Shown: positions 15,301 to 38,334 of the stretch, piece after piece
Layout of the letters: each line of letters begins with the position of its first letter
Position numbering within the stretch: the stretch's first letter is position 1
Origin: Spirochaetia bacterium
GTDB taxonomy: Bacteria > Spirochaetota > Spirochaetia > DSM-2461
Direction: 5' to 3'
Length of the DNA stretch: 64,000 nt
NCBI GenBank assembly: GCA_963668315.1
Contig: OY764216.1
Span: 3,360,001-3,424,000, forward strand
Made by a program: the position numbers and the translations under genes
The notes under the pieces: generated by a model
The model's input: only the letters and a program-made list of their open reading frames with translations
Databases searched by the model: none
What the model was told of the DNA's origin: nothing

Positions 15301-16643
15301 TTACCATCGCACGTAGCGGTGAATGCTGGGTTTACACTTATGATCTCCGTAACCGACTGGAGAAGGTGGAGATCTGGGATGAAACAAGTCAAGCCTTGAC
15401 GACACGGGCTAGCTACGTTTATGATACTGACGGTTACCGGATTGAAAAACGAATAGGTGAAGGAACAGACGAAGTTATTACTAATTATGTCTTTGATTTA
15501 TCCGGAAACATGATTGAGGAGACAGAGAACGGGGTATCTACCCAGTATGTGTTTATGGGCAATTCTCACATCGCTAAAATCAATAATAATGGTACTCATG
15601 AATATTTCGGAACGAACCATCTGGGGAGTACAACGCTTCTCATAGCTCAGGATGGAACTCCGATCATCAATGATGAAACGAATCCTTTCGGCGACCATGA
15701 GAATAAGAATATCTTTTATACAGGAAAGCAGTGGGATGAAGACGCTCAGCTGTATTACTTCAATGCAAGGTGGTATGATGCGGATACGGGGAGATTTATC
15801 ACAGAGGATCCGGTAAGGGACGGCCTATTGTGGTATGCCTATGCCAATAATAACCCCATGAAGTTTACTGATCCGACGGGAATGAGGTTATCCGATCCGA
15901 GTGGTCCTCTAGATGATCATGATAGGGGTGTAAATACGAATCCGGGCTCTTCCAAGAAGGCAGAGAGCAGCTCTGGGAGTGGTTCAAATTATTTTGGTTC
16001 GGGTTCAAAACCTGGAACTAATACCGGTAATGACGATCACGATTCAAAAGTCCCCATGTCTACTCCGCAAGAATATGATGTAATTCCCAAAATCCAGACA
16101 GTGAATACAGGGAATATAATAACTGATGTTCTCCTAGGGGGATTGGCTGGGTTATTTAACACAGCGTCAACTGCAATCAATATGGTCCCCAATACCTTTG
16201 GTGCAGTTGATAGAGGACTTACAATTGTTGACGATGCCATTCCCGATGAGTATTCATTGACAGGAATGGGGCTTAAAGAGGATTTAATTGCAGCAGGTGT
16301 TGCATCTATGGTTCTTGCTCCTGAGTTAGCTCTTGCTAAAACAAATACTCGCTTGTTACTTGGCAAGGGGGAGATTCCTGGAGCATACCTTGGGACAAAA
16401 GCTCCTAAACAAGTTACTCCAGGAACTAGAACATTAAATGGGCAATATGTAAATGATAGAGGTAGAGTAGAACCTTGGACAGCACATTATGATGAATATG
16501 GTCGGAATATAGCTCGAACTGATTTTAATGCAGGAAACAAGACTCAAGGAATTCCAGATACTCATTATCACACTTATGAATGGGGGCCAGGAAAGACTCC
16601 GTTAGAAACAGGAAGCCATATACCAGGAGAATATAAACCATGA
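6348..16643 (+). CDS. Secreted RHS/YD-repeat polymorphic toxin: signal peptide, discoidin/Ig/Fn3-like N-terminal region, RHS core, C-terminal toxin CT1
   Basis: ATG at 6348 follows GGGAGAG and gives a Sec-type signal peptide (MNKHIVKLASIISFGLFSLNLSA-Q). Many YD repeats. Canonical core 'FYTGKQWDEDAQLYYFNARWYDADTGRFITEDP...YANNNPMKFTDPTG' followed by a divergent tip. Confidence 0.93.
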   Translation: MNKHIVKLASIISFGLFSLNLSAQNLPQNILDTLNNQANLGVARLSDMEYSPNIQIGHPAEYLLDGNSDTWYGLTNMASQGWVRLVFEEEVYLEGIRVNGIIPDDVLISLETTRDMESVTFPAGYIVDAGTDYLLDLSRERLISDNVLIRISGSDLSKIQINEIELITRPENGELHKKDLVPREMTYSKKELNDNYTMVDGKIGTVWHNQNRGFGSMIYWLYQNVIQGQFHSNDKWRKVDEIIYDVTNPGYMETLKFYLTDSASGTLKLDILTGEEWQPVGNYQLSGMQGWQNLSLEEYGEIGALKLTMEDPSKPWQPGNYGGIGEIELWGRTNPERLYLKDLISPAAPYGNHDALFSLPDYGTRDFSFEIVTAGANVEAPQVFLNGYNLNDVRCQEYDGFDVWEVDAPDHLLKEIDNSLKLEPSFDTRILSAHLISPENRGLLISEGSLSDGRRYSGRATSVDPMLIELLDGQAEMEEIILYFNEQAPGNLYIQDGGTDHYLNPITDSNGERSYGGREFLEKLGLDGLFDLQEIEVKGSRNQIVNPYIELLFPLQDVELPQHVTYHYKVIGITDVPDGEITVNGIPAQVRDNFFWVEMRDLNIREAGENLIEAKVKHPNGNEAVDKALIHIESDSNNITIDQEDRLYTTIDPTFRISGRISGYERDLRINGVPLSVPNHRRFSYDFPLDMGLNLIEIELMSLDGDRVLVRQMRQAYRQEAEPSLSIIFPTDSSMTNKDFIDVSGTVSPWGLESLTVNGFDAAINNGTFFLDSLPLDDVIKPIRVQATYETGVVVEKTVWVEKDQQAPVISDVAPAPGTMVGDSHVEITGTVSEENDVTVFVNGIVAPVTGNWFSLVVPLPLGGNNEIRISAQDEAGNHTDWPVFMIYKDIFGPLPFDVTVTPATWTNDRRPVIEFQTTDADIGLRDYAVSVNGGDFVTQESPNMLPYLPDGKIEITVRAYDLFGNWTDSTAYAFIDTTPPDEPENFRVVPGKDRVLLRWEETDEETQAYVIGQVGSEEAITVTRDDFLSQEEGVLFFEKAIERLEPGQTYEFYIKAVDWAGNVGRTYVKSITTSEVTVDLESNGTSLLEYDGLVLYIPQGSLPDVVDKVLMREIEDEIISDQSVFPLVSPIYSFSVGNDEGEEEDHVVFDKPYVGQITYKESPDWGDISEQRLAVYYYDDEWCRWFITDQNIVDPETNTITFMTDHFTDFSVQPTSQDEIEYNQLKGIEYPLTSESITHTPISVSAQGGGASTAMTEFSLPGKNGLDLVLRRTYSSTVADSDCANLPMNSIGLSDTAYLETSNTELSVNPITGLIQETPTSSAENNARQVLDEYLSNSTELIKSWSSSLHRQAMYKRGELSYALGQGWRLDFPYVRFQNASVNIYIPEYGFISTEELKRVGKNNTGNITYTDSLEGKCEVTLIRKKITNTESNSQHSTRYKLTNIHVYTKDGKHYEFLNTGQISQISDQYKIGEEKANQISFKYNDEDLTLRRIVDTMDRSIFFTYYDEEEYSKFLPVIKHIAVFDKIQAPDSDVLILTNEQAENSDFFVTYNYDIDQEDSAGLPLLLNSEDVQGRIWSYEYGEMYLKSKYKNDSMKDNDGKQISFYPNKTKSRFIYPLISMEGPGIGHERISYGKAWTVDENGFSSLNIENSYRAIGNKYELMDSTEILAVHKVETLDETGYIQKTTDYSYSIDKEGWIRQTTKIDGRLKEIFNFSQIKFKIDQPNTSSLFGLIRHTNIFDIKNVMQTSKKTYLPRNEDYVLTQQKSTAYYTYQRLPRTETTIYGPNLDSPSLKTSYTYDGWGNPTEIVTEEMNKYYTSKEMVYNWYSQDQEDPEGLTKTDSPEEVGSSELNGRIRDRLLRSYRSVTTTGEVERVELPEERVYQYNAEGSLIAQAERIGRDLVSAGNPKWSITLYGYNDHGELIKITNPREHITKIDYDYSHGDYDLVTTEELNVPDEMGNEALRTSYVQKDKLCGWVTKEIRADGLEITYERDNLGRIVKLIKPKDDEEMENPVIHVDYDDQAMAVKQIDPHKNYNLYSFNDRGELIDISKYNKSDEKLQKTSLEQDYFGNISQVTIHKENGQSKILNYSYDGLGRITNENYREEGQERNVAYSYYPENNTTVRIDENKNKRINYEARPGLVLETDELSESNYLLRTVRNYYNVRGDLLVSIDGEGNRTEYFYDRQGNLYKTLTPEATFYPDGETSVTSRIVSSKEYNVLGLVSEERTNLLDGTLVNRKTYEYDNLGRLSEEIVYYSNEEASIEHYYDDLDREVRTVDARDKEWRKEYTVRGMIEKEISPAPLENVTSYTYDLKDRLKTITDARENSDRYEDYNGTLTYIYDELDRLIKGELPTRAGEDNRNIVFEYDREGNLRSRTEPDGGVTTYTYTEQNRVKTETVKDDLADAPVSYTTEYKYDPVGNLIEKTLPDNVIEIYHYDDLYRKIQDELPEGVKISYAYDDNDNLRKVVNGRGFEQFYSYDSLNRPILYTDETGENWVTGYNALGNVTRTIDPNDVLRRNLFDERGSLIKEFDGRGLTRSYTYDAMGNLDNMTDARGTIIDYTYREDNLPVQVDYMNGLSTRTLNYEYDEEGALIRATDNGIVTEYNNFDGYRPDPMGKITRRTTTGYNDVSYYYDKMDRMTSLTNGTDSTISYEYNRVGQLKAIPGFMSSINYDDRGRMVGYTLDNGLSMGRSYDDKSRLEYLSYSHNNLSLKNYQYSWDKTDNLIEENGTIYAYDARDRLAMAMFSMEMDNQKETEVDLDDYGNTNYFSKAENDVIGTGTLEEVDPTLSDEFRLDWGARSLGVDMGYPYYVGKIVLNVTDGISSRISEDTVVLYTAMSNRNGAYVECPVSDYFVELEDGVGTITLTLKNPVVARYVKINSLFNERDSTYKAFDNSTLGLDDIKPLTVYKLEGGAHNEFYVYDDKGNRTRKTLMETTMETSVYIYYDNSDWLMADGTYGYKYDENGNLIEKGTNYIVSDDSVTIARSGECWVYTYDLRNRLEKVEIWDETSQALTTRASYVYDTDGYRIEKRIGEGTDEVITNYVFDLSGNMIEETENGVSTQYVFMGNSHIAKINNNGTHEYFGTNHLGSTTLLIAQDGTPIINDETNPFGDHENKNIFYTGKQWDEDAQLYYFNARWYDADTGRFITEDPVRDGLLWYAYANNNPMKFTDPTGMRLSDPSGPLDDHDRGVNTNPGSSKKAESSSGSGSNYFGSGSKPGTNTGNDDHDSKVPMSTPQEYDVIPKIQTVNTGNIITDVLLGGLAGLFNTASTAINMVPNTFGAVDRGLTIVDDAIPDEYSLTGMGLKEDLIAAGVASMVLAPELALAKTNTRLLLGKGEIPGAYLGTKAPKQVTPGTRTLNGQYVNDRGRVEPWTAHYDEYGRNIARTDFNAGNKTQGIPDTHYHTYEWGPGKTPLETGSHIPGEYKP

Positions 16644-16972: not shown

Positions 16973-17005
16973 TTGTAACGAATTCGGTCAAAGGATGATT
17001 AAGGT

Positions 17006-17038
17006 TCGCATCTGGCGGCGGCTCTCCTCCGGTTCACC
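17006..17038. repeat. Structured repeat A, copy 1 (5' part only)
   Basis: GGCGGCGGCTCTCCTCCGGTTCACC (17014-17038) matches GGCGGCGGCTCCCCTCCGGTTCACC in the 38368-38522 copy with one mismatch. Confidence 0.75.
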
Positions 17039-17059
17039 GATTCTAATGACGATTAAATG

Positions 17060-17087
17060 GCCGTCCTATTCGTGGGGCGGCTTTTTT
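17060..17087 (+). terminator. Intrinsic terminator
   Basis: GCCGTCC/GGGCGGC stem followed by T6. Confidence 0.65.
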
Positions 17088-17100
17088 GTATAATCAACTG

Positions 17101-17322
17101 ATGACCCGATTAAAACTTCGGTGTAGGAAAAGAGCATTTCTCTCCCGTATAGCAATCATTCATGCACGACTCTTTCCTCCTAAGCCCTACGTTGAAGAGC
17201 GTTGGGTAAATAGGCGTGGAGAGCTCGTAGAGAAGTATATTCAACCCTGCACGACCTGGCCGGTGTTTACGGCAAAGGGGTGCATCCGAAAAGTGGAGGA
17301 GCAATTCGATGAGAAAAACTAA
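17101..17322 (+). CDS. Small basic hypothetical protein
   Basis: ORF from ATG 17101 overlaps the next small ORF. No recognisable motif. Confidence 0.35.
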   Translation: MTRLKLRCRKRAFLSRIAIIHARLFPPKPYVEERWVNRRGELVEKYIQPCTTWPVFTAKGCIRKVEEQFDEKN

Positions 17323-17476
17323 AACCGAACGTCTTATAGCTCATTATGAAAAGCAGAAGCGAGGTGCACGTAAACGAACCCTGATTCGCACCTTTGAGCA
17401 GGACGGGAAGACCTATGAGGAATATCAAGTATCTCGCTGGCCATATCCATATAGGGAGACCGTTGAAGTAAGATAG
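17309..17476 (+). CDS. Small basic hypothetical protein, 55 aa (MRKTKTERLIAHYEKQKRG...), not in the ORF track
   Basis: Manual translation. GGAGGA ribosome-binding site upstream of ATG 17309; TAG ends at 17476. Confidence 0.5.
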   Translation: MRKTKTERLIAHYEKQKRGARKRTLIRTFEQDGKTYEEYQVSRWPYPYRETVEVR

Positions 17477-17590
17477 GGGGTACGGTAAATTTCCTGAGAG
17501 CTCCGACCGGAGGGCCGGTTTTGCGTGTGCTGACCCGGAGCGACTATAATACAGAAACTGACCTTAAGGAGTTTCATGTGAACGCCATAT

Positions 17591-17622
17591 GACCGCCCTT
17601 CGATTCGTTGGGCGGTCTTTTT
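17591..17622 (+). terminator. Intrinsic terminator, similar to the one at 17060
   Basis: GACCGCCC/GGGCGGTC stem followed by T5. Both terminators are followed by GTATA. Confidence 0.65.
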
Positions 17623-17662
17623 GTATACCAGCCTTGTATGTCTTCGGGGCTGGTGCAGGAAA

Positions 17663-17905
17663 TCATCTATATACTATTGCATCTCCATATTTTCTTTCCA
17701 AATCGGCTACGAGCCTGTCATAATCATAAAAGCCTTTATTACGCAGTACGCGCGTCATAATCGTTGATACTGCGCCCTTACTAAGATGCTCTACTTCCAT
17801 GGCTGATGCTGTGGCATAAACGAGTTCTGTAACAGCATCAACGTCTTTCCTTGACCATTCATCGCTGATGTATTGGCGGAAAGCTTTTTCTAAATCATTA
17901 TTCAT
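17663..17905 (-). CDS. Hypothetical protein, divergent from rep
   Basis: GGAGGA ribosome-binding site before the ATG of MNNDLEK; helical-looking 80-aa protein. Confidence 0.55.
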   Translation of the reverse strand: MNNDLEKAFRQYISDEWSRKDVDAVTELVYATASAMEVEHLSKGAVSTIMTRVLRNKGFYDYDRLVADLERKYGDAIVYR

Positions 17906-18073
17906 ACGAATCTCCTCCAAATAGGTTCAATACTAATAGTGGGTAAACTGTAACAGAGTAATCCCAGCCTCCTATAACAGTGCAAAGTATTTTATTTTAC
18001 TTTTTTTCTGAAAATATGCTCTTTTCCAGTAAATACAAGTAGAGACATATGAAATATCTCTGGAGGTTAATTC

Positions 18074-19126: not shown

Positions 19127-19200
19127 GCTTGGTGTTGTTGAATCACACATTATCCTGACCAAAACTTCCAGATTATTCTGGAATCCAAATTATTTTAACA

Positions 19201-19219
19201 GCTTCCCCGAAAGGGAAGC
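19201..19219. terminator. Hairpin at the end of the transposon operon
   Basis: GCTTCCC-CGAAA-GGGAAGC just downstream of the 19228 stop codon; U-tract is weak. Confidence 0.4.
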
Positions 19220-19227
19220 CATAAATC

Positions 19228-19533
19228 TTAGAACGGCAAACTTAACTGTCCGTCAAAATCCGCATCAGGATCAAGAGAAAGTTCATCCCACTCCTTCTCA
19301 AGTATCTCCTCAATTACCGGTACAGAGACCTTTCCATAATAGAGAGCTCTCTCACAGGCTGCCTCCATTCTCACCGGCGAGACCTTAAACGTCAGATCCA
19401 AAAACCGACTGACCTCTTCATATTTCTCATGGCACCACCTACCCCACAACATATAGGCTACCTGCCTGGTTTTCTCCATGAAAAGATAAGTTTCAGGAGG
19501 AGTAAAGCGAAAAAAAGTTTTCCCATTATCCAT
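19228..19533 (-). CDS. Small transposon protein resembling the C-terminal helical domain of IS21-type IstA
   Basis: 'RMEAACERALYYG...IEEILEKEWD' pattern. GGAGG ribosome-binding site. Confidence 0.5.
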   Translation of the reverse strand: MDNGKTFFRFTPPETYLFMEKTRQVAYMLWGRWCHEKYEEVSRFLDLTFKVSPVRMEAACERALYYGKVSVPVIEEILEKEWDELSLDPDADFDGQLSLPF

Positions 19534-19547
19534 ACGGCTTCCTCCTG

Positions 19548-20351
19548 TTAGATGATTTCGGTCTGAGCGATGCGAACATGTTCCGCGGAAACGAGCTGAC
19601 TTTTTTCTTTCGCCGCCGCCATCATAGCTCCCCTGGCGATGGTGTTAGCCCGTCTTAGAAGTCCTCCCGATGTTTGATGGATAGCAAGAATGGCTTCATC
19701 TGCGAATAGGGGCTTCTCCATCCCGGCCAGATGAAGATGATGTTCCAGGTATCCTTTCATATGCTTCAGATTCAGACTGTCCAAATGGGAGCGCCCCACG
19801 ATACGCGATGCCAGGGGTTTGGCGGAAATAGCCATGAGTTTGTCTATGAGCCCGTCCTGCCCGCAGAGAATTATGGGCATAATCGGGTTTGAATCAAAAT
19901 CAAACTGACAGAGAGTATGAAGCTGGTTGAAGACCTTGGACTTAAGAAGATGGGCTTCATCTATAACGAGAATGGGGACTTTTTTCTTTGAAGCAATGTC
20001 TTTTATGATATCCCGGACATTTTTCATCGCGATAGCCAGCTGAAATGAACGGTACTCCTCCCCAAACTCCATAAGAAACTGCCGTAAAAGCTCCATCATA
20101 CTGCCCGATGTAGCGACCAGCGAGATAATCTTGTACTTCCCCGGGTGGAACTTACTACACGCCAATCTCAGAGATGTGGATTTCCCGGATCCTACTTCCC
20201 CAGTGATGAGAGAGATAGCTCCCAGCTTTACGGCGTATTCAAATCTGTCCAAAAGGGGCGGTAGTCCAGGCAGCATATAGAGATCATCCAATTTGATTTT
20301 CTGAGAATAGGGCTCCTGTGTTAATCCGTAAAAATGCTTTATATCAATCAT
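19548..20351 (-). CDS. ExeA/TniB-like AAA ATPase (transposition helper)
   Basis: Walker A GEVGSGKST and Walker B LVIDEAH, plus 'IILCGQ'; overlaps the integrase gene. Confidence 0.88.
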   Translation of the reverse strand: MIDIKHFYGLTQEPYSQKIKLDDLYMLPGLPPLLDRFEYAVKLGAISLITGEVGSGKSTSLRLACSKFHPGKYKIISLVATSGSMMELLRQFLMEFGEEYRSFQLAIAMKNVRDIIKDIASKKKVPILVIDEAHLLKSKVFNQLHTLCQFDFDSNPIMPIILCGQDGLIDKLMAISAKPLASRIVGRSHLDSLNLKHMKGYLEHHLHLAGMEKPLFADEAILAIHQTSGGLLRRANTIARGAMMAAAKEKSQLVSAEHVRIAQTEII

Positions 20352-21633
20352 CGTTTTCTTCCTCCGAGAATAGTTGTCCGCCGCTATAGGGATTGGAATT
20401 CAGATCAGCTTGAATCTCTGAACGTTTGACCTGGCTATTGATATGCACGTCCATAGGTTTAAGAAATCCTCTGGATTTATCGGCAATAAAGATTTCTACC
20501 CGGCTCATATCCGATTCATCGTAAGAGAGGTAGACCTTCTGCCCTGCCAGACCGATGGGTGCCTGGTATAGTTTTCCCTCGATACTGACCGATCTGTCAT
20601 TGGTTACCGTTCTGAGCAGTCTCTTACGAAAATAATCATTCAGATTCTCCGGAGCCGATCGAAGAAGGGTTAGTGATTTCAAATAACGGTCCAGAGGTTT
20701 CTCCCGGATTGAAGAGTGTTTCCTAATATGATAATTCTCATCAATGAAAGCAGCGAGATGCCCGTTCAATTCCTCCAATGTCAGTTCTTCCGGAAGGGCT
20801 TGAAGAACCTCCATCCTGACCGTCCTGTTAAATCTTTCGATTTTCCCTTTCCCTTGAGGGCGGTAGGGCTTCGCATACGTCAGAACAATCCCCAGAGAAG
20901 CGCAACCGTATTGAAGCTTATGGGATTTGAAATAAGCGCCGTTGTCCGTGTAGAGTTTACGGGGAAGGCCACGCTTAACCAGGGCTTTCTTCATACAGTC
21001 GATAAAATTGTCCACATTCTCCCGTAGATAGAACTGGGCATGGGGAATAAGACGGGAATGATCGTCGATGATGGCGAACATATAGGATTTTCTACGGCGG
21101 CCCTCATGAATGACATAAGGACCGTGCATACAGTCCGATTGCCAGAGGTCATTGGGAAACTCCACTTCGAACTTCAACATATCTTCCTTCTGCTTCCTCT
21201 CCTTACCCAGTCCATGTTTTTTCAGAATTCTATAGATGGATTGGGAGGAGGCGTTGAAGTCGGGAGGAAGTACATTTCTTTGCCGGGCCAGCCTCATCAA
21301 GACGGGAACGGATGCCTTCATAAAATCCTTTCTCAGATTAATGAAGGCCAGTTCTGTTTCCCTGTCCATAATGCGGCATCCGCCCTGGTCCCCCCGGCTT
21401 TTGGGATGCAGACTCTCTATTTGCCGACCGCTGGATTCATACTTTCTGAGCCAACTGAGGATAGTCGCGCGGCTGATATAGGTACGGGTGGAAAAAGGGA
21501 TATTCCACTCCCTAGCCGTCAATTTATCAAGGACATCCCTTTGCATACCCCAATCTTCTCTGCTCAGATCCAGTAAAGGATAGATCACAGAAAACCGGAA
21601 GGCGGCTACTTTTTCTCGTTCTTCTTTGGTCAT
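20344..21633 (-). CDS. DDE integrase/transposase (rve core, Mu-like C-terminus)
   Basis: Motifs 'LWQSD', 'IIDDHSR', 'LYTDNGAYF', 'PQGKGKIERFNRT'; N-terminal HTH. Confidence 0.92.
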   Translation of the reverse strand: MTKEEREKVAAFRFSVIYPLLDLSREDWGMQRDVLDKLTAREWNIPFSTRTYISRATILSWLRKYESSGRQIESLHPKSRGDQGGCRIMDRETELAFINLRKDFMKASVPVLMRLARQRNVLPPDFNASSQSIYRILKKHGLGKERKQKEDMLKFEVEFPNDLWQSDCMHGPYVIHEGRRRKSYMFAIIDDHSRLIPHAQFYLRENVDNFIDCMKKALVKRGLPRKLYTDNGAYFKSHKLQYGCASLGIVLTYAKPYRPQGKGKIERFNRTVRMEVLQALPEELTLEELNGHLAAFIDENYHIRKHSSIREKPLDRYLKSLTLLRSAPENLNDYFRKRLLRTVTNDRSVSIEGKLYQAPIGLAGQKVYLSYDESDMSRVEIFIADKSRGFLKPMDVHINSQVKRSEIQADLNSNPYSGGQLFSEEENDD

Positions 21634-21661
21634 AAAACCTCCTAAAACGTTTTATTTCCAT

Positions 21662-22150
21662 TTAAGGCGGTATTTTATTAGTTGTCACTGCAAAGCTAAG
21701 GTAGGTCATGCAGAGAGCTACCGATTTCACATCATGATTTATCGAATGTGAGGGGAAGCAGAACCGATTCTGAACGCTGTCTGAAAGGAAAAGGGAGAGA
21801 TCAAAATTCAGTCCCTGAATAGCAGCTTGTTTCATCAGTCCCCGATACCAGTATTGCTGCCTTTGACGGCTGAAGGATGTGAACCAGGTATGGGATTCTA
21901 ACTTATGAGAAAGGCTTCGATAAATTTCTGTAGCGGTTGATTGAAACCTGGGGAAATATGCAACAGGCCTGGCCGTATGTACCGCTCCGCACTCGGGACA
22001 GCGGAATCTTTTGAGGTAGAGTCCTTCCGGAAATTCGTCGAAATAACGCAGTACATAACCATGCCCCCAGATCCTGAAACTTTGGCAGGAAGGACATCTT
22101 CTTGGTTTCCTCCAGACATAATTCTTATGTTTCTCTTTAAGGACAGCCAA
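21662..22150 (-). CDS. Transposon-associated Zn-finger protein (DUF6431-like)
   Basis: 'CPSC...WGHGYVLR...RFRCPECGAVHT' directly upstream of the DDE integrase. Confidence 0.7.
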   Translation of the reverse strand: MAVLKEKHKNYVWRKPRRCPSCQSFRIWGHGYVLRYFDEFPEGLYLKRFRCPECGAVHTARPVAYFPRFQSTATEIYRSLSHKLESHTWFTSFSRQRQQYWYRGLMKQAAIQGLNFDLSLFLSDSVQNRFCFPSHSINHDVKSVALCMTYLSFAVTTNKIPP

Positions 22151-22317
22151 ATCCGTCCGAAAATAAATTATGATTTATGGGTTGGGATAGCCGTTCTTGC
22201 AGGAACAATAGGCTATCCCTTTTTTATCGATAATTTATTTTGTGAAAATGAAGTATAAAAATATTTTATTGTGGAATATTGATAGAATAATCTGATAGAT
22301 TAATGTTGGATTCTACA

Positions 22318-22880
22318 ACGGTCAGATCATCATCGAGGAGGTTTCTCCGACCCTATCCATCTTTACCGGGGATATCCGTCTTTCCCTTCTGGAGAAGAAT
22401 CTTTTAGGGGAGATTGATGCACACCTGCACATTAAAGAACTACTGGAGCAAGAGCGGTTTCAGGAATATTCCTATATCCTGATCGATACTCCGCCTTCTC
22501 TGGGAGTCCTGACTCTTAATGCTTTGACAGCTGCCCACCACCTTATCATTCCCATAGCCTGTAAACTCTATTCCCTCCAGGGAACCAATGACCTCATGAA
22601 TACCGTCAGCAAGGTTCGGAAGACTCTCAATCCTGATCTGAACCTCCTCGGGGTTCTGATAGGTCAGTATGACCGGGTACCGGTTATTTCCCGGGAGATA
22701 CGGGAGGAAGTGGAACGTTCCTTCGGTGATCTGGTATTCCCTGTGGTTATCAGCAAGAGTATCCGGGTCGAGGAGGCTATAGCCCAGAAGAAGGGTGTGG
22801 TGGAACTTCCTATCAAAGACCGGATCAAAAAGGAGATTGAAGATGCTGCTCAGGAGCTGATCCGCAGGAGCTCTCTATGA
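22318..22880 (+). pseudogene. parA: 5'-truncated parA of element 1
   Basis: From 22318 the frame reads (D)GQIIIEEVSPTLSIFTGDIRLSLLEKNLLGEIDA...LIDTPPSLG, aligning with the intact ParA at 31039 from about residue 60. The Walker A region is missing and the break lies exactly at the transposon end. Confidence 0.88.
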
Positions 22881-29327: not shown

Positions 29328-29333
29328 TATAGT

Positions 29334-31042: not shown

Positions 31043-31779
31043 AAATTGTTTTCTCCAACCAAAAAGGCGGTGTAGGCAAGACCACCAGCTGCCGGGAACT
31101 GGGTATCTCCCTTTCTCTCCAGGGCAAGAAAGTCCTCCTTGTCGATACGGACCCCCAGGGCAACCTCTCCAAGAGCCTGGCGTACAATGAAACAGGACTC
31201 TACGACGCGTTGACAGACGGTATGGTTATCATAGAGCCTATTTCGGAAACTCTCTCCCTTCTTTCCGGAGACATCCGCCTATCCCTCCTGGAAAAGAATC
31301 TTTTAGGTGAGATCGATGCTTACCAGCAACTCTCAGAGTTGTTTGAACTGGACTGCTTCCAGAAGTTCGACTTCATCCTGATAGACACTCCGCCGTCTTT
31401 GGGAATCCTGACTCTGAACGCCCTGGTCGCCTCGGACGCTCTGGTGATCCCTGTGAGCTGTAGAATGTACTCCCTTCAAGGGACTAACGACCTGATGAAC
31501 ACGGTGAGCAAGGTTCGGAAGAACCTGAACCCCGACCTGAAACTCCTCGGTGTCCTTATCAATGCCTTTGACCGGGTTCCGGTAATCATGAGGGAGATAA
31601 AGGAGGAGATAGAAAAGGCCTTTGGGGAAGCGGTCTTCTCCCAGGTGATCAGCAAGAGCGTTCGGGTGGAAGAAGCTATCGCCGGTAAGAAGGGAATTCT
31701 GGAACTCTCTACCCGTGATCGTATCAAGGAGGAGATTCAATTTTTGACCATGGAGCTGATTTCTCGGAGCCGTCTATGA
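31039..31779 (+). CDS. parA: ParA/Soj-family ATPase
   Basis: 'NQKGGVGKTT', 'VDTDPQGN', 'LIDTPPSLG'. Confidence 0.93.
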   Translation: MKIVFSNQKGGVGKTTSCRELGISLSLQGKKVLLVDTDPQGNLSKSLAYNETGLYDALTDGMVIIEPISETLSLLSGDIRLSLLEKNLLGEIDAYQQLSELFELDCFQKFDFILIDTPPSLGILTLNALVASDALVIPVSCRMYSLQGTNDLMNTVSKVRKNLNPDLKLLGVLINAFDRVPVIMREIKEEIEKAFGEAVFSQVISKSVRVEEAIAGKKGILELSTRDRIKEEIQFLTMELISRSRL

Positions 31780-34667
31780 GCGCCCGCCTAAAAGAATCGA
31801 CTCTGAACGTGGGAGGCTTCCTTGATGAGTTCGAGAAGGACCAGGTCAAACGAGACGTGGATATCCTTTCCCTGTTCTCCTCCTTCGGGGTGAAGCTGGA
31901 AAGGAAGGGTAACAGTTATATGGGACTCTGTCCTTTCCATGATGACAAGAATCCCTCCCTTTCGGTGGACAAGGCCAAGGGCCTCTTTCACTGTTTCGGC
32001 TGCGGGGCTTCCGGCGACGTCTTTGACCTGGTGATGAAGCTCAAGGGAATGGATTTCAAGGAGGCTCTGGCCTATCTGAAAGTGCCCCTGGCGGCTTATG
32101 TTGAGACTCCGTCTCCCGTAAGGGTGACGGATGTCCAGCAACCGGCGGAGACGTTACCGGAACCGGAAGAGCCCGCTCCGGGCGCTAGTGTTGAGAGTGT
32201 CTTAGACACTACCTTAGGTAGTTCGGTTCTGGAAAAAGCAAACCTGGATGACCTGGTGTCTTATTACGAGAAGAACCTGGCCGGGAATACCAAGGCCCAG
32301 AACTACCTGAAAACCCGGGGCCTCCTGGACTGGGATCTCTTGAAAAGGTTCCGTATCGGTTTCTCCGATGGGAGCCTCAAGGGCCGTCTCTCCGAAGCCC
32401 AGTACTCCGAGTTCAGGGATAGGGGGATCTTCCAGCCGAAGGGACAGGAGACCTTTGTCAGCTATATCGTTTTCCCTTTGCTGGACGAGCAGGACCGGCC
32501 GGTCAGTCTCTACGGCCGGAAGATCGTGGACCGAAGCTCCCTACCGGCCCACCGCTACCTTAAGGGACCGCATAGCGGCCTTCTCAACGGGAAAGCCTTT
32601 GGTGTTTATAAAGATCGAATGATCCTCTCTGAGAGCGTCATTGACGCCCTTTCTCTGATGGCATTAGGCTTTCAGAACGTCTGTCCCGTCTACGGCACCA
32701 ACGGGGTCACCGGTGACCATTTTCGGATGATAGAAGAGAACCGGACGAAAGAGATTATCATAGCCTTCGATAACGACGAGGCGGGACGGAAGGCCTCCGA
32801 AGAGCTGGCCGGTCGTCTTCTTTCGCTGGATACTTCCGTGAGAGTCGTTTCTCCTCCTGAAACTGTCAGTGATTGGAACGAGGCCCTTCTGGCCTCGTCC
32901 CTGAAACAGGAGATAGAAGCCCTCATAGAAGCGGCCCCCTTGAGGAAACCGGAGAGCCTGGAATACCGCTCCGGGGTTCAGGTGGAAGAACGGGAGGGAA
33001 AATACTTCTTTACCGTCGGTTCTATTCTCTACCGGCTGATCGGTGTGAAAGAGGGTTTCGTTTCCTCTCTGAAGGTGAACATCCGGGCCGAGAAGGACGG
33101 GGAGAAGCACATAGACAACGTGGATCTCTTCTCCGCCCGGAGCCGGAGCAGCTTCGCCTATGCCCTGAGCCGCATCTTCGAGGTGGAGGCCGCCCGGGTG
33201 GAACGGGATCTGATCTCCCTTCTGGAATGGCTGGAAAGGGATCGGGACCGGAAACTCTCCGATCCCATTTCCATTATTGTCATAAGCCAGTCAGCCGTCG
33301 GTAAGAGCTACCTTATCGACACGGTCAAGAAGCTGATCCCTCCGGAGGATGTCCTTTCCATGACGAGCCTTTCCGACCAGGCCTTGAACTACCTTCCCGA
33401 GGAAGCCCTGCTTCACAAGTTCCTGATCATGGGAGAGGCGGTTCACTCCGATGCCGTGGATCACCAGATGAGGGAGATGCTTTCCGCCCAGGAGCTGAGC
33501 CGTCTGGTTACCACCAAGGACGAGAAGACCGGCAAGATGACAAGCCGCTTAGTCCGAAAGAAGGCCGTCGTTTCCGCCGTGATGAGTTCGGCCACCGGGG
33601 ATATCAACCCGGAGAACGCTTCCCGGTGCTTTGTTATCTCCACCGATGAGACGGAAGAGCAGACCCGGGCCATTCACCGGGAGCAGAGACGGAAATACTC
33701 GCTCGCGAGAATTCGGGAAAAACAGGAGGCTCTTCCTTCCATTGTGAAAGCCCACCACGCCGCCCAGAGGCTCCTGAAGGATGTGGTCATCATTAACCCC
33801 TTCGCCGACTATCTGGACTTCCCCGCCAGCCTCATGCGCTCCCGCCGGGACCATGAGCGTTTTATTGATTTGATCGCCTCGGTCTGCTATCTCAGGCAAT
33901 ACCAGAAACCTGAGCAGAAGGGGGGACTTAGTCCCCTTATTGAATGTGATCTTGAAGATTATAAGGTGGCCTATGACATCATGGTAAAGATCCTTCCTTC
34001 CACTTTATCGAACTTCCCCAAGAGCGCCCAGCTCCTGTATGAGACGATCCGGAGGATACTGAAGGAGAAGGCCGACCAGGAGAGCCTTCCTATTTCTGAG
34101 GTGTCGGTGACGCAACGGGAGATCCGGGAGCGGGAGGGACTGGAACACAACTTCGTGAAGCGGAACATCCGCCTTCTGGTGGAGTATGAATATTTGAACC
34201 AGAAAGGCGGCCAGAGCCGGGGCGGTAAGGCTTTTTACCGGATAAATCAGGACGGGCCGTTGTCCCTTTTTGATCTGTCGTCTATTCCCAAACCGGAAGA
34301 AGTGAAAGAACTTGTCAAAAGTGGGTCACGCCCTTTGACCCACTTTTATTTAAAGCGTGTAAAGGAGTTAGGAGAAAGTGGGTCAGGTTATGGAGAAAGG
34401 TATACCGAGAGAAAAGGTTTTCAGGGAGTTTTTGGTAGAGGAAAAGGTCCGGGGACGGACGGAGCAGAGCCTTTCCGGGGTACGCTCCCGGGTTCCCCTG
34501 TTCTTCCATTATCTGGAAGAGGAGAGAAGGGGAAATATCCTCACCGTAGGGATCAGGGAGGCCGCCGGTTACCAGGGCTGGCTTCTGAAAAGGAAGACTC
34601 AGGAGGGGAAGATTTATTCCGTCCGGACGGTGAACTCCTACTTTACCGCCGCCGGTTCCTTCTATGA
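31776..34667 (+). CDS. CHC2/TOPRIM primase-ATPase of element 2, probably damaged (internal 60-aa deletion, C-terminal read-through)
   Basis: Homologous to 22877..25573 but lacks GIEE...RRMK at 33260/33261. Homology ends near 34310 while the ORF runs on into the recombinase gene. Confidence 0.8.
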   Translation: MSARLKESTLNVGGFLDEFEKDQVKRDVDILSLFSSFGVKLERKGNSYMGLCPFHDDKNPSLSVDKAKGLFHCFGCGASGDVFDLVMKLKGMDFKEALAYLKVPLAAYVETPSPVRVTDVQQPAETLPEPEEPAPGASVESVLDTTLGSSVLEKANLDDLVSYYEKNLAGNTKAQNYLKTRGLLDWDLLKRFRIGFSDGSLKGRLSEAQYSEFRDRGIFQPKGQETFVSYIVFPLLDEQDRPVSLYGRKIVDRSSLPAHRYLKGPHSGLLNGKAFGVYKDRMILSESVIDALSLMALGFQNVCPVYGTNGVTGDHFRMIEENRTKEIIIAFDNDEAGRKASEELAGRLLSLDTSVRVVSPPETVSDWNEALLASSLKQEIEALIEAAPLRKPESLEYRSGVQVEEREGKYFFTVGSILYRLIGVKEGFVSSLKVNIRAEKDGEKHIDNVDLFSARSRSSFAYALSRIFEVEAARVERDLISLLEWLERDRDRKLSDPISIIVISQSAVGKSYLIDTVKKLIPPEDVLSMTSLSDQALNYLPEEALLHKFLIMGEAVHSDAVDHQMREMLSAQELSRLVTTKDEKTGKMTSRLVRKKAVVSAVMSSATGDINPENASRCFVISTDETEEQTRAIHREQRRKYSLARIREKQEALPSIVKAHHAAQRLLKDVVIINPFADYLDFPASLMRSRRDHERFIDLIASVCYLRQYQKPEQKGGLSPLIECDLEDYKVAYDIMVKILPSTLSNFPKSAQLLYETIRRILKEKADQESLPISEVSVTQREIREREGLEHNFVKRNIRLLVEYEYLNQKGGQSRGGKAFYRINQDGPLSLFDLSSIPKPEEVKELVKSGSRPLTHFYLKRVKELGESGSGYGERYTERKGFQGVFGRGKGPGTDGAEPFRGTLPGSPVLPLSGRGEKGKYPHRRDQGGRRLPGLASEKEDSGGEDLFRPDGELLLYRRRFLL
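34317..34385. repeat. AAAGTGGGTCA repeats, two direct and one inverted (candidate origin of element 2)
   Basis: AAAAGTGGGTCA at 34317-34328, TGACCCACTTTT at 34336-34347, AAAGTGGGTCA at 34375-34385. Confidence 0.65.
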
Positions 34668-35352
34668 ATACCTGAAACGAAAGAGCCTGGTTCCCGGGAA
34701 TCCCTTCCGATCCGTCCGCCAGGCCCGGGCCGATAAAACCCTTCCCCGGGATCTTCTCTCCGAGGAGGAAACGGACAGGCTCCTGGCCGCCCTCTTCACC
34801 TGGGAGGAGACCCGGGATATCCGCATCCCTTTGAGAAACTACAAGGTCCACCTCATGGCGGAGCTGATGTACTCCACCGGTCTCCGTATCGCCGAGCTGG
34901 CCGCCCTCAAGCCGGAGGACATCGACTTGAACGCTTCCCTTGTCCGGGTCTGGGAAGGGAAGGGGAGAAAGGACCGGATCTGCTACCTGAACGAGTATAC
35001 CCGTGAGATCCTAAGGATCTATTTGGAAGAGATGAGGCCGCTTCTCTCCGCCGGATGGAATGAAGGAAAGGAGACCCTCTTCTTCTCCTCCCGGGACCGC
35101 CTGGGTTCCGTAGCCAACAACCTCTTCAAAGACACTTGTAAGAAAAACACACTTAGTGTGCAGACCTGTCATGGCTTTCGTCATCTGATGGGATACCATC
35201 TTCTCCGATCCGGTTGTCCCCTTAGGTTCATTCAGCAGTTCCTCGGGCACTCCCGACTCCATACGACGGAGATCTATACCAAGGTGGATCAGGAGGAACT
35301 CAAGAACGTCATAGACCACTGTCATCCCCGACAGAGGAAAGCGGAGTTATGA
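34390..35352 (+). CDS. Tyrosine recombinase (XerC/D-like), element 2, first of pair
   Basis: 'MYSTGLRIAE', 'GKGRKDR', 'HGFRH', 'LGH...TEIYT'. Start is ATG 34390 or GTG 34378. Confidence 0.92.
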   Translation: MEKGIPREKVFREFLVEEKVRGRTEQSLSGVRSRVPLFFHYLEEERRGNILTVGIREAAGYQGWLLKRKTQEGKIYSVRTVNSYFTAAGSFYEYLKRKSLVPGNPFRSVRQARADKTLPRDLLSEEETDRLLAALFTWEETRDIRIPLRNYKVHLMAELMYSTGLRIAELAALKPEDIDLNASLVRVWEGKGRKDRICYLNEYTREILRIYLEEMRPLLSAGWNEGKETLFFSSRDRLGSVANNLFKDTCKKNTLSVQTCHGFRHLMGYHLLRSGCPLRFIQQFLGHSRLHTTEIYTKVDQEELKNVIDHCHPRQRKAEL

Positions 35353-36305
35353 TCTTCACGAGAGACCGGGCGGTCAATGTGATGAGGGAGTACATGAGAG
35401 AATCGGGCTATGCGGAGAGGACCGTCACGGGACGGGTTTACACTCTTCGCCGGTTCTTCGATTACCTGGGACCGGTAGATGTACGGGAAGTGAGCCGGGA
35501 AGATATCCACGGCTTTCTTCTGAGCCTGTCCGATACGGAATTGAAGCGTCACTCCAAGCAATTGATTCATAGCGCCATACGTCTCTTTTTCAAGGCTCTC
35601 TACGTGAAGGAGGTGATCCTGATTAACCCGGCGGAGGACTCCTTCTCCTTTCTGCCGGAGAGGGGGGAAACCAAGGTCATCTTTTCCGAGTCGGAGCTGG
35701 CCGGGTTTCTGGATAATATCGATATCAACAAACCCCTGGGACTCCGGGACAGGACTCTCTTTGAACTCCTCTATGCCACGGGGATGCGTTCCGGAGAGGC
35801 GGCCCGGCTCAGGGGGGAGGACATCAACGAAAAATCACGGACTATTCTGATCAGGCATACCAAGACCCGGCGGGACCGGGTGGTACCCGTTACGGAAACG
35901 GCCATGGCGTTTATTAAGATGTACCGGGGAAGGAGAAAAGGCGGCCCCGTCTTTCTGGGAACCGCCGGGCCGTTGCAGGGACCGGCCATGAATAACCGTT
36001 TCAAGGATCATCTGGCCGATCAGGGGATCTACCGGAAGGGACTGACCATTCATTCGCTGAGGCACTCGGCGGCGGTTCATCTTCTGCAGAACGGGGCGGA
36101 CATCCGGTATGTTCAGGAGCTTCTGGGTCATGATTCCTTGGAGAGTACGGTCATCTATACCCACCAGCTGCAGGAGGAACTCAAGCGGATCTATCGTACT
36201 CATCATCCCCGGGAGAACCGGTTTTTCAAGGAGGTGGATGAGGAGTACCGGCGGAAGATAGAGGAGCTGAAGGCTATGATTCTCTCGAAAGAAAAGAGCT
36301 GGTAA
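35349..36305 (+). CDS. Tyrosine recombinase (XerC/D-like), element 2, second of pair
   Basis: 'LYATGMRSGE', 'HSLRH', 'LLGH...TVIYTH'. Confidence 0.92.
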   Translation: MIFTRDRAVNVMREYMRESGYAERTVTGRVYTLRRFFDYLGPVDVREVSREDIHGFLLSLSDTELKRHSKQLIHSAIRLFFKALYVKEVILINPAEDSFSFLPERGETKVIFSESELAGFLDNIDINKPLGLRDRTLFELLYATGMRSGEAARLRGEDINEKSRTILIRHTKTRRDRVVPVTETAMAFIKMYRGRRKGGPVFLGTAGPLQGPAMNNRFKDHLADQGIYRKGLTIHSLRHSAAVHLLQNGADIRYVQELLGHDSLESTVIYTHQLQEELKRIYRTHHPRENRFFKEVDEEYRRKIEELKAMILSKEKSW

Positions 36306-36420
36306 TACCCTTGTTTCTGGGGTATGATTGTTTACGTATTATGACGGTAACCGAAAGTAAGCCTTCAGATTTTTTACCTCACGTTTTCGGGGAGGGTCTC
36401 CCGGATTTTGAAGGTTCATC

Positions 36421-37240
36421 TTACTTCAATGCTCGGTGGTATGATGCGGATACGGGGCGGTTTATTACAGAGGATCCGGTTAGGGACGGCCTATTGTGGT
36501 ATGCCTATGCTAACAATAACCCCATGAAGTTCACCGATCCGACGGGGATGAGGCTCTCTGATCCGACTGAGGGATTGGATGAACATGACTTAGGTGTTGA
36601 TACGAATCCAAGTGCGGATGATTCTGGTTCGGGGTCGAGTTCAAATAATGATGAAGAGATATCTGAAGAGGAAAAAATATATAATCAGAACCAACCAAGG
36701 GAAAATGGTTTGGAAGAACTTCTAAACTATGATAGATTTGGCCCTGATCCTGATTCCTTGAATTACAATGATTTTGGACTTGATCCTAATCAATTGGATA
36801 AGATTCAAGAGGAAGTAGATGCTCATCTTGGATCAGCTGGTGGATTATATGGGAATAAAAATATGTGTGATGATTGGGCAAAGGATAGACTTGATAATGC
36901 AGGAGTTGATACTTCTGATTTGTTCGCAGGTGATCCTAATGGTACCAAAGTTGCTCAGGATATTGAAAATGCCCAAGAAAAAGGATTAGGAAGTTCTTTA
37001 CCAAAAGAAGGTTGGAGCCTTGTTTTTATGGGTAAATCGAAAGCTGGACTTGACGAACATGCTGGCCTTCTTAAAATGAATAGTGATGGATCAGGGACTT
37101 TTTATGATTCCTCTAGTACAAATGCTAATCAACTACCAGAAGGGCATAATTTTGATAATTTTGAAGATAAGTTCTCAAAAAGAGGTGGTGATAAATATGG
37201 TCACTATGAAACTCAAATATTTATTCCAGTTAAACCTTAG
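36421..37240 (+). CDS. Orphan RHS C-terminal toxin module CT3 (putative NlpC/P60 papain-like Cys-His peptidase/amidase)
   Basis: Core repeat YFNARWY...DPTGM, then a tip with 'NMCDDWA' and 'DEHAGL'. Confidence 0.82.
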
Positions 37241-37245: not shown

Positions 37246-38334
37246 ATGGGGGTCAGTTTGAAAAATAAAATATTAGTTTCATTACTTTTAGCAATAGCCC
37301 TTTCAGCTTGTTATTCTCAGGGGTTGATTTCCTTTTCGTATAACGGGAAAATCGGATATTTAAATGAGACATTGAACGTTATATTATCTCCTCAATATGA
37401 TTCTGGTTCAAATTTTTCAGATGGTTATGCTGTTGTTGAATTAGATGAGAAATCTTATGTGATTGATGTACATGGAAATATCTTATATTCGACAAATTCA
37501 AATAATATGCACTATCTCGGAGATTCATTATTTACCATGCAAGGTAATCATTTTTCTAATTTCGATGGATTATATCAAATTGTCAATATTGATTCAAAGA
37601 GAATCATAGCTGAAAGATTAGCAGAAGTGGATTGGGAAAGAGCTAGGGATAGTAGTGCAATATCTGTTTTATATTATGATAGTGATATCGGAATTTATTA
37701 TATCAATAGTGAGGGGGAGCCTCTTTTTGAAAATACTCCTATCTATGGAGGTTATTCATTTCAGGAAGGATACGCAGTCGTTATGGTTGATGATTGGCTT
37801 TCTGCAATTATGGATAATAATGGGAATCTCGTTGCTCAAGATTTCATGAGACTTGGTAGGTTCTTTTCTGAAGGATTATGTCCAGCTATGACAAAAGAAG
37901 GAAAGACTGGCTATGTGAATACTAATGGCCAATTTGTTTTTGAGATACCTTTAGATACTTCAGATTTAAACATGAGAAAAAGTACTCCTTTTGAAAATGG
38001 TCGAGCAATTATCAATTGTCTTGAAGATGAAGATTATTGGATTGTCATTGATAATAATGGAAATTATCAGTCTAGTGAAATTAGAGCTGATGATTGTTAT
38101 GGTTTTAACGAAGGAATGGCACTACTTCATAAATATTCTTATACTAATGATGAGCACACTTATGGTTATGTAAACTCACAAGGAGAGATTATATATGATT
38201 ATCAATTTTCCAAAGCCGATGATTTCTACAATGGTTATGCTCGGGTTATTATACAAGGTAGGGATGCGATTATAGATAAAGTCGGGAATATATATTATTC
38301 AAGTGATTTGATGAAAAATAACCCTAATCCATAA
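37246..38334 (+). CDS. WG-repeat lipoprotein, putative periplasmic immunity protein for CT3
   Basis: Signal peptide with lipobox (ALSA-C); repeated 'F-S/Q/N-E/D-G-Y/L-A ... GYV/I-N-x-x-G' units. Confidence 0.8.
   Translation: MGVSLKNKILVSLLLAIALSACYSQGLISFSYNGKIGYLNETLNVILSPQYDSGSNFSDGYAVVELDEKSYVIDVHGNILYSTNSNNMHYLGDSLFTMQGNHFSNFDGLYQIVNIDSKRIIAERLAEVDWERARDSSAISVLYYDSDIGIYYINSEGEPLFENTPIYGGYSFQEGYAVVMVDDWLSAIMDNNGNLVAQDFMRLGRFFSEGLCPAMTKEGKTGYVNTNGQFVFEIPLDTSDLNMRKSTPFENGRAIINCLEDEDYWIVIDNNGNYQSSEIRADDCYGFNEGMALLHKYSYTNDEHTYGYVNSQGEIIYDYQFSKADDFYNGYARVIIQGRDAIIDKVGNIYYSSDLMKNNPNP

Follow-up and report, generated by a model that had tools for sequence, protein, structure and literature searches.

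Two members of a likely family of integrative elements with attachment sites in RHS core-coding DNA and exchangeable toxin tips

Jackson et al. (2009) proposed that rhs tips are displaced via circular intermediates and homologous recombination, with no known integrase (PMC2935791). In Salmonella, a full-length carrier was reported to acquire an orphan tip by fusion and to retain its previous immunity gene (Koskiniemi et al., 2014; PMC3967940). Recombinase genes have also been noted near such loci, as integrase genes intervening in orphan cdiA-CT/cdiI arrays (Ruhe et al., 2016; PMC4927057) or as XerC/D-like genes next to polyimmunity loci (Zhang et al., 2012; PMC3482391). Finally, RIT elements carry three recombinases in a row (PMC3414803).

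The window considered here is a stretch of 64,000 nucleotides from a Spirochaetia bacterium (contig OY764216.1, positions 3,360,001 to 3,424,000; genome G000). With a probability of roughly 0.8, it holds two integrative elements of one family, which attach within conserved RHS core-coding DNA and load a new tip while displacing the old one. This interpretation, put forward in an initial annotation of the window, is supported by comparative sequence evidence, from which we infer the activity of the elements.

All genes, tips, sites and arms below lie on the forward strand unless marked otherwise. The full-length RHS carrier (6321..16643; 3440 aa; Pfam RHS_repeat, TIGR03696 core) ends in tip CT1 (15886..16643), the presumed cargo of element 1, which has no Pfam family and is followed by putative immunity gene 1 (16640..16972), named for its position. 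The right junction of element 1, a core piece and tip CT2, the presumed cargo of element 2, occupy 27604..28476, ahead of putative immunity gene 2 (28477..28728; 83 aa, hydrophobic). The right junction of element 2, a core piece and tip CT3, presumably the oldest, lie at 36421..37240, ahead of putative immunity gene 3, encoding a WG-repeat protein (37246..38334). Further 3' are remnants of element-type left sequence (38373..41186, in pieces 38373-38521 and 40974-41186), split by an IS3-type element (39047-40325). The initial claim that a different tip and immunity gene follow each repeat holds in that the three tips diverge after DPxG and each then precedes a distinct small gene; the roles are given by position. 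Pfam gives no family for CT1-CT3 at useful E-values, and since neither tips nor follower genes match a named toxin or immunity family, the WG repeats of the third follower aside, "toxin" and "immunity" are positional labels.

The core repeats are direct, pairing 15755-15943 with 36421-36609 at 85% identity (BLAST against the genome, E 7e-53) and 15819-15885 with 27604-27670 at 96% (E 6e-22). As annotated, the modules end 77 and 115 bp 5' of them, measured from the stop codon of the last recombinase. The left edges are sharp: identity rises from 28% in the preceding 60 bp to 96% over the following 67 bp for element 1, and from 22% in the preceding 60 bp to 92% over the following 131 bp for element 2. 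The left junction of element 2, site A, lies at the Y-Y-F-N-A codons of the core (15755..15766), and that of element 1, site B, at the D-G codons, which with the core piece up to DPxG span 15819..15885. The two sites are thus 64 bp apart in one gene, each with its own recombinase pair. Two observations count against the model favoured below. No inverted repeat was clear by eye at the junction sites. In relatives, the stretch common to all partners at site A is a few bases; classical tyrosine recombinases use an overlap of 6-8 bp, longer than this stretch. Because the elements use different sites (15819 and 15755), the segment 27604-36420, initially suggested to circularize, is not site-bounded alone; in the corrected reading, the second circle would consist of 15755-15818 plus 27604-36420 once element 1 is lost, or of both elements together. 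Both predicted empty sites are in frame without internal stop, coding for 3456 and 3417 aa.

The modules are homologous, as first recognized: both code for two Phage_integrase proteins and for a primase (CHC2/TOPRIM) joined to a Walker-A ATPase, the latter protein with 54% mutual identity, within a gene set that comprises an HTH regulator, two small ORFs, parA, the primase-ATPase and two tyrosine recombinases. Between modules the recombinases share 27% and 37% identity, and all four retain the catalytic motifs R, H-x-x-R-H and H...Y. Element 1 starts with a left non-coding part (16973..18073), short pieces of which recur in DNA 3' of other immunity genes, followed by a plasmid-type replicase gene (PF03090; 18074..19126) found in none of the other elements examined. 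A 3.2-kb IS (rve transposase and AAA_22 helper; 19134..22317, reverse strand), with six near-identical copies (at least 99.9%) in the genome, adjoins the replicase gene and occupies the place of the missing HTH, orfX, orfY and 5' part of parA, whose 3' remnant persists (22318..22880). Next come primase-ATPase 1 (CHC2, TOPRIM, Walker A; 22877..25573), intact by alignment, recombinase A1 (25719..26621), recombinase B1 (26618..27526), of the clade using the D-G site, and a right arm of 77 bp (27527..27603), where an outward promoter-like match (27523-27550) is weak (one found against a shuffle mean of 0.3).

Element 2 has a left non-coding part (28729..29333), of which 29065-29278 is 76% alike to 40974-41186, including 19 bp from 29159 that match exactly, a BrnT/BrnA toxin-antitoxin pair (29334..29889), a divergent HTH_3 regulator (29904..30275, reverse strand), the small genes orfX and orfY, kept across elements (30504..31042), and parA (31039..31779). 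The one lead for orfX is DUF5659 (score 0.89, 39% of members), its neighbours in the Atlas being unnamed. Primase-ATPase 2 (31776..34667) shows in alignment an internal deletion of about 60 aa directly before Walker A and a C-terminal read-through; it is followed by recombinase A2 (34378..35352), recombinase B2 (35349..36305), whose relatives use the Y-Y-F-N-A site, and a right arm of 115 bp (36306..36420). An ATG at 36341 in this arm is in frame with the displaced tip; a promoter scan of the arm gave no match, nor did Rfam over 15000-42000 up to E 0.5. Both element bodies are damaged in this strain, a point absent from the initial annotation, and the elements may therefore depend on each other or be decaying.

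A second RHS locus of this genome bears two body-less mini-cassettes that have the same junction; they share a 368-bp spacer at 96.5%, although the tips they flank differ, and their arms are 81-85% alike to arm 2. Such derivatives, which retain the arm, are probably moved in trans. The joint 17086/28822, a candidate for excision, was rejected, as this locus has both pieces side by side. A contig end at 36369 (by length, in two runs) coincides with the end of a 14-bp run common with a mini-cassette arm.

Relatives in other genomes reveal where the unit begins and ends. In G009, a 9303-bp unit made of core piece, tip, immunity gene, body and arm is found 99.7% identical at two unrelated loci; it starts at the core site, and host DNA differs on its left, cores and tips on its right. 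Repeated units also occur in G016 (9.9 kb, 99.9%) and on an Aureispira plasmid (7.65 kb, 99.6%), and in both, as in the G010 array, the upstream tip is repeated whereas the last one differs. The informative arrays of these four thus fit the initially proposed unit of core piece, tip, immunity gene, TA/regulator, replicon and recombinases, and the repeated upstream tips of the latter three, followed by a different last tip, agree with the proposed order from CT3, the oldest, to CT1, the current and newest. Twelve arm-core junctions, from G000, G009, G010 and G012, share one core position; in relatives, the arms are identical and the core diverges from a few bases to the right of the junction.

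The modules were expected at rhs sites, and a location mostly elsewhere, which would have told against the proposal, did not emerge: a core lies downstream in 11 of 17 informative genomes (none in six). Among 20 informative metagenome loci, it follows the last recombinase in 8 by HMM and 12 by eye; none was found in the remaining 8, half of which (4/8) show only TA or IS genes. A scan of genome contigs with a single protein yielded one locus, and a scan of viral contigs none among 95 candidates. The elements were also proposed to be armed by the host's carrier. A long RHS gene holds the first unit in the window, G016 (two loci), G326, Aureispira and E. coli SCU-111, in frame where checked; the targets in G009 are, however, stand-alone core-tip cassettes without carrier, so the proposal is not general. 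In congeners of G009, the entire cassette is missing between the same host genes. In the window, as in most spirochaete loci, the recombinases are paired, whereas other loci have a single gene. Relatives with a single recombinase are located behind RHS or CdiA-like genes in Proteobacteria, E. coli among them (54 of 5426 genomes). Public records call these relatives "xerC".

Self-closing records with exactly this gene set (L081/L082, L085 and an 8758-bp plasmid record) are the only form in which the circle is known here. They could stem from the collapse of tandem repeats: a chromosomal array of E. coli SCU-113 has a repeat unit to which the 8758-bp record corresponds at 99%. G036 provides a contrast, with 17 cores, 15 of them having RHS-coding DNA upstream, orphans of widely varying length, and no match to the primase or recombinase B of this family. 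Reading its 18 core matches as a mini-cassette array was rejected, as they are mostly long homologous orphans.

The position of the junction tracks the clade of recombinase B. The D-G site is found in all four rows with enough downstream DNA of the six-row B1 clade (SH-aLRT 97), a site just 5' of P-x-x-x-x-D-P-x-G in all three such rows of a four-row clade (SH-aLRT 100), and the Y-Y-F-N-A site in the G009/G010/G012 clade (SH-aLRT 100) as well as with B2, L102, L075 and L126, in what is a quick tree whose related rows are not independent. The recombinases do not belong to the IntI family (TIGR02249, 89-117 bits, cut-off 265), a member of which this genome encodes elsewhere (G000 3134160-3135089), nor do they reach the curated XerC/XerD cut-offs (171-213 bits against 330-335). 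A link to "IntKX" was considered and dropped, this name denoting integrases of gammaproteobacterial ICEs in the source concerned (PMC8138268).

According to the model that we favour, a circle would carry, in order, the core from the site to DPxG, tip, immunity gene, accessory TA genes, HTH, orfX/orfY, parA, primase-ATPase, recombinases A and B and the right arm. A single crossover at the site, which would be specific to each recombinase clade, would join the tip of the element in frame to the carrier and, at the same time, put the resident tip and its immunity gene behind the right arm. In several clades, this arm would give a start codon to the displaced pair, which could therefore still be made. 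In the window, element 2 would have come first, at 15755, bringing CT2 and displacing CT3, and element 1 later, at 15819, bringing CT1 and displacing CT2. The comparison of loci shows where the units end, that junctions are fixed and sites specific to a clade, that one unit occupies two sites, that tips are fused in frame and that mini-cassettes exist. The recombinases would catalyse the crossover as well as excision and tip switching, and the model also presumes that the circle replicates, that the arm drives expression, that the tips are toxic and that the element can pass between cells; among its genes, none for conjugation or a capsid was identified. The joint expected from excision of element 1 (15818/27604) was absent from assembled contigs over 15500-35499, mapped in four runs (at most two samples of one study, run X7 being patchy), where assembly drops rare forms. 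As 36421 and 41070 fall outside this stretch and contigs drop rare forms, the mapping is uninformative on element 2. A joint 23046/31984 was set aside as evidence, as it joins the two primase copies via other letters, at low depth.

Tips could also be displaced by homologous recombination between cores, the module being a riding replicon whose recombinases resolve dimers or act elsewhere. Core copies are 85-96% identical, such exchange has been proposed for enterobacterial rhs (PMC2935791) and, over 522 bp at 95%, in Salmonella (PMC3967940), and one ancestral capture per clade could leave a fixed left edge. Nevertheless, homology here extends over only 67-131 bp, the cores of relatives diverge a few bases past the junction next to identical arms, and two sites 64 bp apart pair with two different recombinase pairs. 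Moreover, the Jackson model explains variable core fragments, which are found in the element-free G036 array, whereas those of the elements are constant inside a clade and vary from one clade to another, and we regard this reading as quite improbable. That RHS cores merely offer a widespread safe target, with a cargo that serves above all as an addiction module and loads tips incidentally, seems rather unlikely. It would accommodate the carrier-less targets of G009, the start codon given to displaced tips, the ordinary TA pairs also carried by elements and the report that Salmonella orphan rhs pairs are type II TA modules (PMC7043789), but not readily the long RHS genes that host first units in the window and the other loci listed above; besides, it touches the benefit rather than the mechanism of integration.

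Highly improbable, finally, is a unit composed of the body and the downstream tip and immunity gene, excised via recombination at the left arm, a route that would also change cargo. Left-arm-like DNA does lie 3' of the immunity genes examined, and near-identical G009 bodies sit behind two different tips. In three runs of one sample, contig depth over the pieces of body 2 (109-123, 367-437 and 354-388) exceeds that of two upstream pieces (79-90, 217-260 and 196-237), although such depth is no measure of copy number; in two of these runs, the first deep piece starts at 29159, the first base of the 19-bp run common with 41070. The joint 41069/29159 lies, however, outside the mapped stretch, and body 2 has further breaks that this does not explain. 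An in-house pattern scan, which uses no attC model, detected attC-like hairpins ending all nine immunity genes examined in G009, G010 and G012, one weak case of five in G016 and none at six sites in G000, and an integron integrase is present in all five genomes searched. Against this unit, repeated arrays duplicate the upstream tip, and the identical unit of G009 starts in the core. Left-arm recombination is best read as a second, cargo-capturing step alongside the integration model favoured here.

Integrons, through IntI and attI/attC sites, build ordered arrays with the newest cassette first, and form circles. The present family would share the newest-first array, circles and body-less cassettes probably moved in trans, but its recombinases travel with the cargo, score far under the IntI cut-off and would use a site in protein-coding DNA. 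Phage satellites, for example P4 and PICIs, are small integrated elements with a divergent regulator, a primase-helicase and a tyrosine recombinase. Likewise, the elements combine such a regulator, primase-helicase and integrase in islands of 8-15 kb in which no transfer genes of their own were seen; unlike satellites, they have two recombinases, parA and a target inside a toxin gene whose product would change. Among their genes, Pfam and NCBIfam name none that exploits a helper phage. No relaxase or conjugation genes of the ICE/IME type were found among the ORFs of the element. In shufflons, the tyrosine recombinase Rci inverts fixed segments and changes PilV C-termini; here too a protein C-terminus would be changed by a tyrosine recombinase, but the core repeats are direct and the new end comes with the mobile unit.

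A close parallel is the circle of Jackson et al. (2009), which likewise holds a core piece, a tip and intervening genes, shunts the old tip downstream by one crossover and leaves arrays as a record of successive events (PMC2935791). The array order and repeated upstream tips seen here agree with such shunting. In contrast with that circle, the one proposed here has its own primase-ATPase, parA and recombinases, and its junction is fixed. Recombinase genes adjoining toxin/immunity arrays, and the suggestion of site-specific recombination, are common to earlier reports, whose available text defines neither an element with its boundary and site nor a primase or unit, the word "primase" having no occurrence in the main texts (PMC4927057, PMC3482391). 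The Salmonella case was proposed to require locus duplication and homologous recombination over 522 bp, with no mobile element in the text available (PMC3967940), and RIT elements, as described, differ from the paired or single recombinases of this family (PMC3414803). Among open-licence papers and preprints, we found no description of this element, although the gene-neighbourhood lists of PMC3482391 may show such loci.

Tyrosine recombinases, a primase-helicase and TA pairs are familiar parts, but no system of this kind turned up in the literature searched. On balance, we lean towards an undescribed, multi-phylum family of integrative elements that would be dedicated vehicles of polymorphic toxin tips, with clade-specific sites in the coding DNA ahead of the tip (RHS cores, probably also CdiA-like and other carriers). 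They would load their tip on arrival, express displaced immunity from the arm, gain new tips via left-arm recombination and leave mini-cassettes to be moved in trans, and many "orphan" arrays would record site-specific integrations.

Since the 2009 circle model, which named no enzyme, the origin of orphan toxin tips, their extrachromosomal survival and their loading have remained open. The present analysis contributes candidate enzymes, nucleotide-level sites and a replicon for tip displacement, and laboratory testing is practical given that about 1% of complete E. coli genomes contain a relative. If the interpretation is true, these mobile elements would, on integrating, alter what a host protein does rather than restore it, and RHS weapons would have a dedicated and testable route of diversification.

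The RHS carrier gene of the window (6321-16643, 3440 aa) is followed by two modules and two more copies of the RHS core. As the initial annotation had it, these copies start 77 and 115 bp past the last recombinase of each module, and each then carries its own distinct tip and a distinct small gene; both statements hold. The left edges of the copies are sharp: identity is 28% and 22% in the 60 bp before the edge, then rises to 96% across 67 bp in the first copy and to 92% across 131 bp in the second. When the carrier is fused at the edge to one or the other displaced tip, the reading frame stays open, giving 3456 and 3417 aa. Pfam gives no family name to any of the three tips, and the toxin and immunity roles therefore rest on position and on the established organization of RHS loci. 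A type II secretion operon (GspG, F, E, secretin, and prepilin peptidase; 41248-51196) lies between two loci combining an Ig-like giant protein with RHS (62-16643; 51607 onward), and secretin or GspE-like genes also occur near the element in the relative G016 (C1) and in a Janthinobacterium plasmid. Type II secretion is a possible export route for these RHS carriers.

The primases of the two modules are 54% identical, and their recombinases 27% (A) and 37% (B). All four recombinases have the catalytic motifs and score under the XerC, XerD, and IntI cut-offs. Both bodies are damaged: module 1 lacks HTH, orfX, orfY, and the 5' part of parA, the gap adjoining an IS with six copies in the genome, and primase 2 lacks about 60 aa ahead of Walker A. 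Element 1 also holds a plasmid-type replicase (PF03090; 18074-19126) absent from the other elements retrieved.

Which tip travels with the body is indicated by relatives. In G009, a 9303-bp unit, 99.7% identical, occurs at two unrelated loci and comprises core site, tip, immunity gene, BrnTA, HTH, orfX, orfY, parA, primase, both recombinases, and the short right arm; the flanks differ, in the DNA on the left and in the cores and tips on the right. The array of G016 reads RHS-tip a, body, tip a, body, tip b, with a 9.9-kb unit at 99.9% identity; this order recurs in an Aureispira plasmid (7.65-kb unit, 99.6%), and in G010 tip X is repeated with a diverged X' at the end. These arrays make the upstream tip the cargo, as initially proposed. 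An 8758-bp circular record consists of exactly core piece, tip, immunity gene, SymE, HTH, primase, and recombinase, and the metagenome contigs L081/L082 and L085 are self-closing. The circular record is 99% like one repeat of the SCU-113 array, and self-closing records may be collapsed tandem repeats; they support the unit rather than free circles.

Twelve arm-core junctions in G000 (the genome of the window), G009, G010, and G012 lie at a single core position. On a quick tree built from the last recombinase, junction position tracks clade. In B1 and its relatives the junction falls at D-G codons (4/4 rows with data); in the G009/G010/G012 clade, and likewise in B2, L102, L075, and L126, it falls at Y-Y-F-N-A codons; it lies just ahead of P-x-x-x-x-D-P-x-G in 3/3 rows of another clade, and in the F-T-x-K-E region for G016C4, G240, G255, L081, and L085. 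The pattern is descriptive, as kin share labels. It implies that the sites of the window's two elements differ, with element 2 entering at 15755 and element 1 later at 15819. Of the two circles first proposed, 27604-36420 by itself does not have one kind of site at both ends. No inverted-repeat site architecture is evident.

The second RHS gene of the genome (3472 aa; L001 1151-11569) has two orphan tips downstream, in two mini-cassettes (L001 11989-13860, about 3431000-3432860 of G000). The roughly 125 bp before each tip share 81-85% identity with the right arm of element 2 and meet the core at the same base, and these cassettes contain no primase or recombinase. Although they stand behind different tips, their 368-bp spacers match each other at 96.5% identity. 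In 3/3 cases (element 2 and both cassettes), the arm supplies an in-frame start codon. We read these units as body-less derivatives, which we infer to have moved in trans. At this locus the first displaced tip is broken into two ORFs, and an IS sits between the last tip and its likely immunity gene. At both RHS loci, short palindromic REP-like pieces without a match in Rfam (38373-38521, 28909-29051, and 17013-17086 in the window) recur behind immunity genes in varied combinations.

Primase matches were found in 8/38 genomes of the order and 18/401 of the phylum, G000 included. Long stretches were retrieved from 21 of the 24 other primase-positive genomes: in 11, an RHS core follows the last recombinase within 1.6 kb; in six, no core lies downstream; three contigs stop too early, and one has no recombinase seen. 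In two of the six, G318 and G326, the recombinases are followed by a TA pair and a tip-like gene pair whose tip-like gene has no DPxG core (L047-L050), and in G326 a broken RHS gene stands upstream; the site of this clade may lie at or after DPxG. Among the 80 metagenome loci listed, of 553 relatives, 20 have both recombinases and 1 kb or more of DNA past them. A core was detected by HMM in 8/20 and a DPxG remnant by eye in four more, two of which are the same element; the others have another tip-like ORF (4/20) or TA or IS genes only (4/20). The DNA retrieved for the close-relative clade L079, L097, and L109 contains no core. The close relatives L083, L112, L138, and L107 have something other than an RHS core downstream, and three share a K-P-L-W-G-G start, which suggests another polymorphic carrier as target. 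Primase matches also occur in 55 plasmid records; the six opened (hosts in Gamma- and Betaproteobacteria and Bacteroidota) have HTH, primase, and one or two recombinases adjoining RHS, CdiA-like, or tip-and-immunity genes. The single-recombinase form is found, at 80% query coverage or more, in 54/5426 complete E. coli genomes, and lies among RHS core pieces in 4/4 regions opened, beside nhoA in three. Tandem single-recombinase relatives stand behind CdiA-like haemagglutinin genes in Enterobacter and Paraburkholderia plasmids (L069, L070); in others (L060, L061; G309, G430) parA comes next and the surroundings hold no RHS core, and in G309 a 2155-aa ORF lies upstream.

Near-identical G009 bodies stand behind different tips, and cargo must therefore change by a second route. 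In three runs of one sample, contigs of body 2 have greater depth than those upstream (a depth, not a copy number), and in two of the three they begin at 29159. This is the first base of a 19-bp exact run common to 29159 and 41070 (29159-41088), a pattern hinting at a candidate 29159-41069 circle carrying CT3, or at amplification. In G009, G010, and G012, attC-like hairpins of 55-83 bp lie at the ends of 9/9 immunity genes examined (L031, L032, L028, L035, L036, L038), and each genome has an integron integrase elsewhere. The contig breaks and the hairpins are leads to that second route.

Taken together, we favor, with a probability of about 0.82, a model in which a circle would enter the RHS core at a specific site through the element's own recombinases, fusing the entering tip onto the carrier and pushing the resident tip and immunity pair behind an arm that would let the pair be expressed; excision would reverse the loading. 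A primary unit made of body and downstream tip is very improbable beside the G009, G016, Aureispira, and G010 arrays, and more plausible as a capture step. Homologous displacement, with the module as a passenger replicon, is distinctly unlikely. For Salmonella orphans, the parts of Koskiniemi et al. (2014; PMC3967940) consulted propose locus duplication together with homologous exchange across 522 bp. Unlike the arrays with fixed junctions, that of G036 holds 17 RHS cores in about 65 kb, 15/17 preceded by RHS-coding DNA, with very unequal orphan lengths (L158-L161) and no match to the element's primase or recombinase B; in 2/17 an arm-like stretch meets the core at yet another position. Several results complicate the favored model, among them the core-less clade L079, L097, and L109 and the lack of evident inverted repeats. 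No excision joint of element 1 was seen in the assembled contigs of four runs, a weak test, and the G009 targets are short stand-alone core-tip cassettes without carrier (L031 3583; L033 1527-1712), in which the core reaches only 30-45 bp upstream of the site and whose flanking host genes are adjacent to each other in congeners. As for the benefit alone, addiction instead of weapon loading is unlikely; orphans act as TA modules according to the portions seen of Starsta et al. (2020; PMC7043789).

The element's working would resemble an integron crossed with a phage satellite. Nevertheless, with phage satellites and shufflons taken as commonly defined, it falls outside integrons, XerCD, RIT elements, ICEs, and shufflons in the membership tests run. 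Recombinase genes beside toxin or immunity arrays are noted, with no element defined, in the sections consulted of Ruhe et al. (2016; PMC4927057) and Zhang et al. (2012; PMC3482391). We found no description of the element in the open-licence literature, subscription papers being mostly outside this search; its genes are visible in public annotations, and earlier notice is possible. Judged from sequence, the element is real and widespread, and is a direct candidate answer to how orphan tips arise and come to be loaded.
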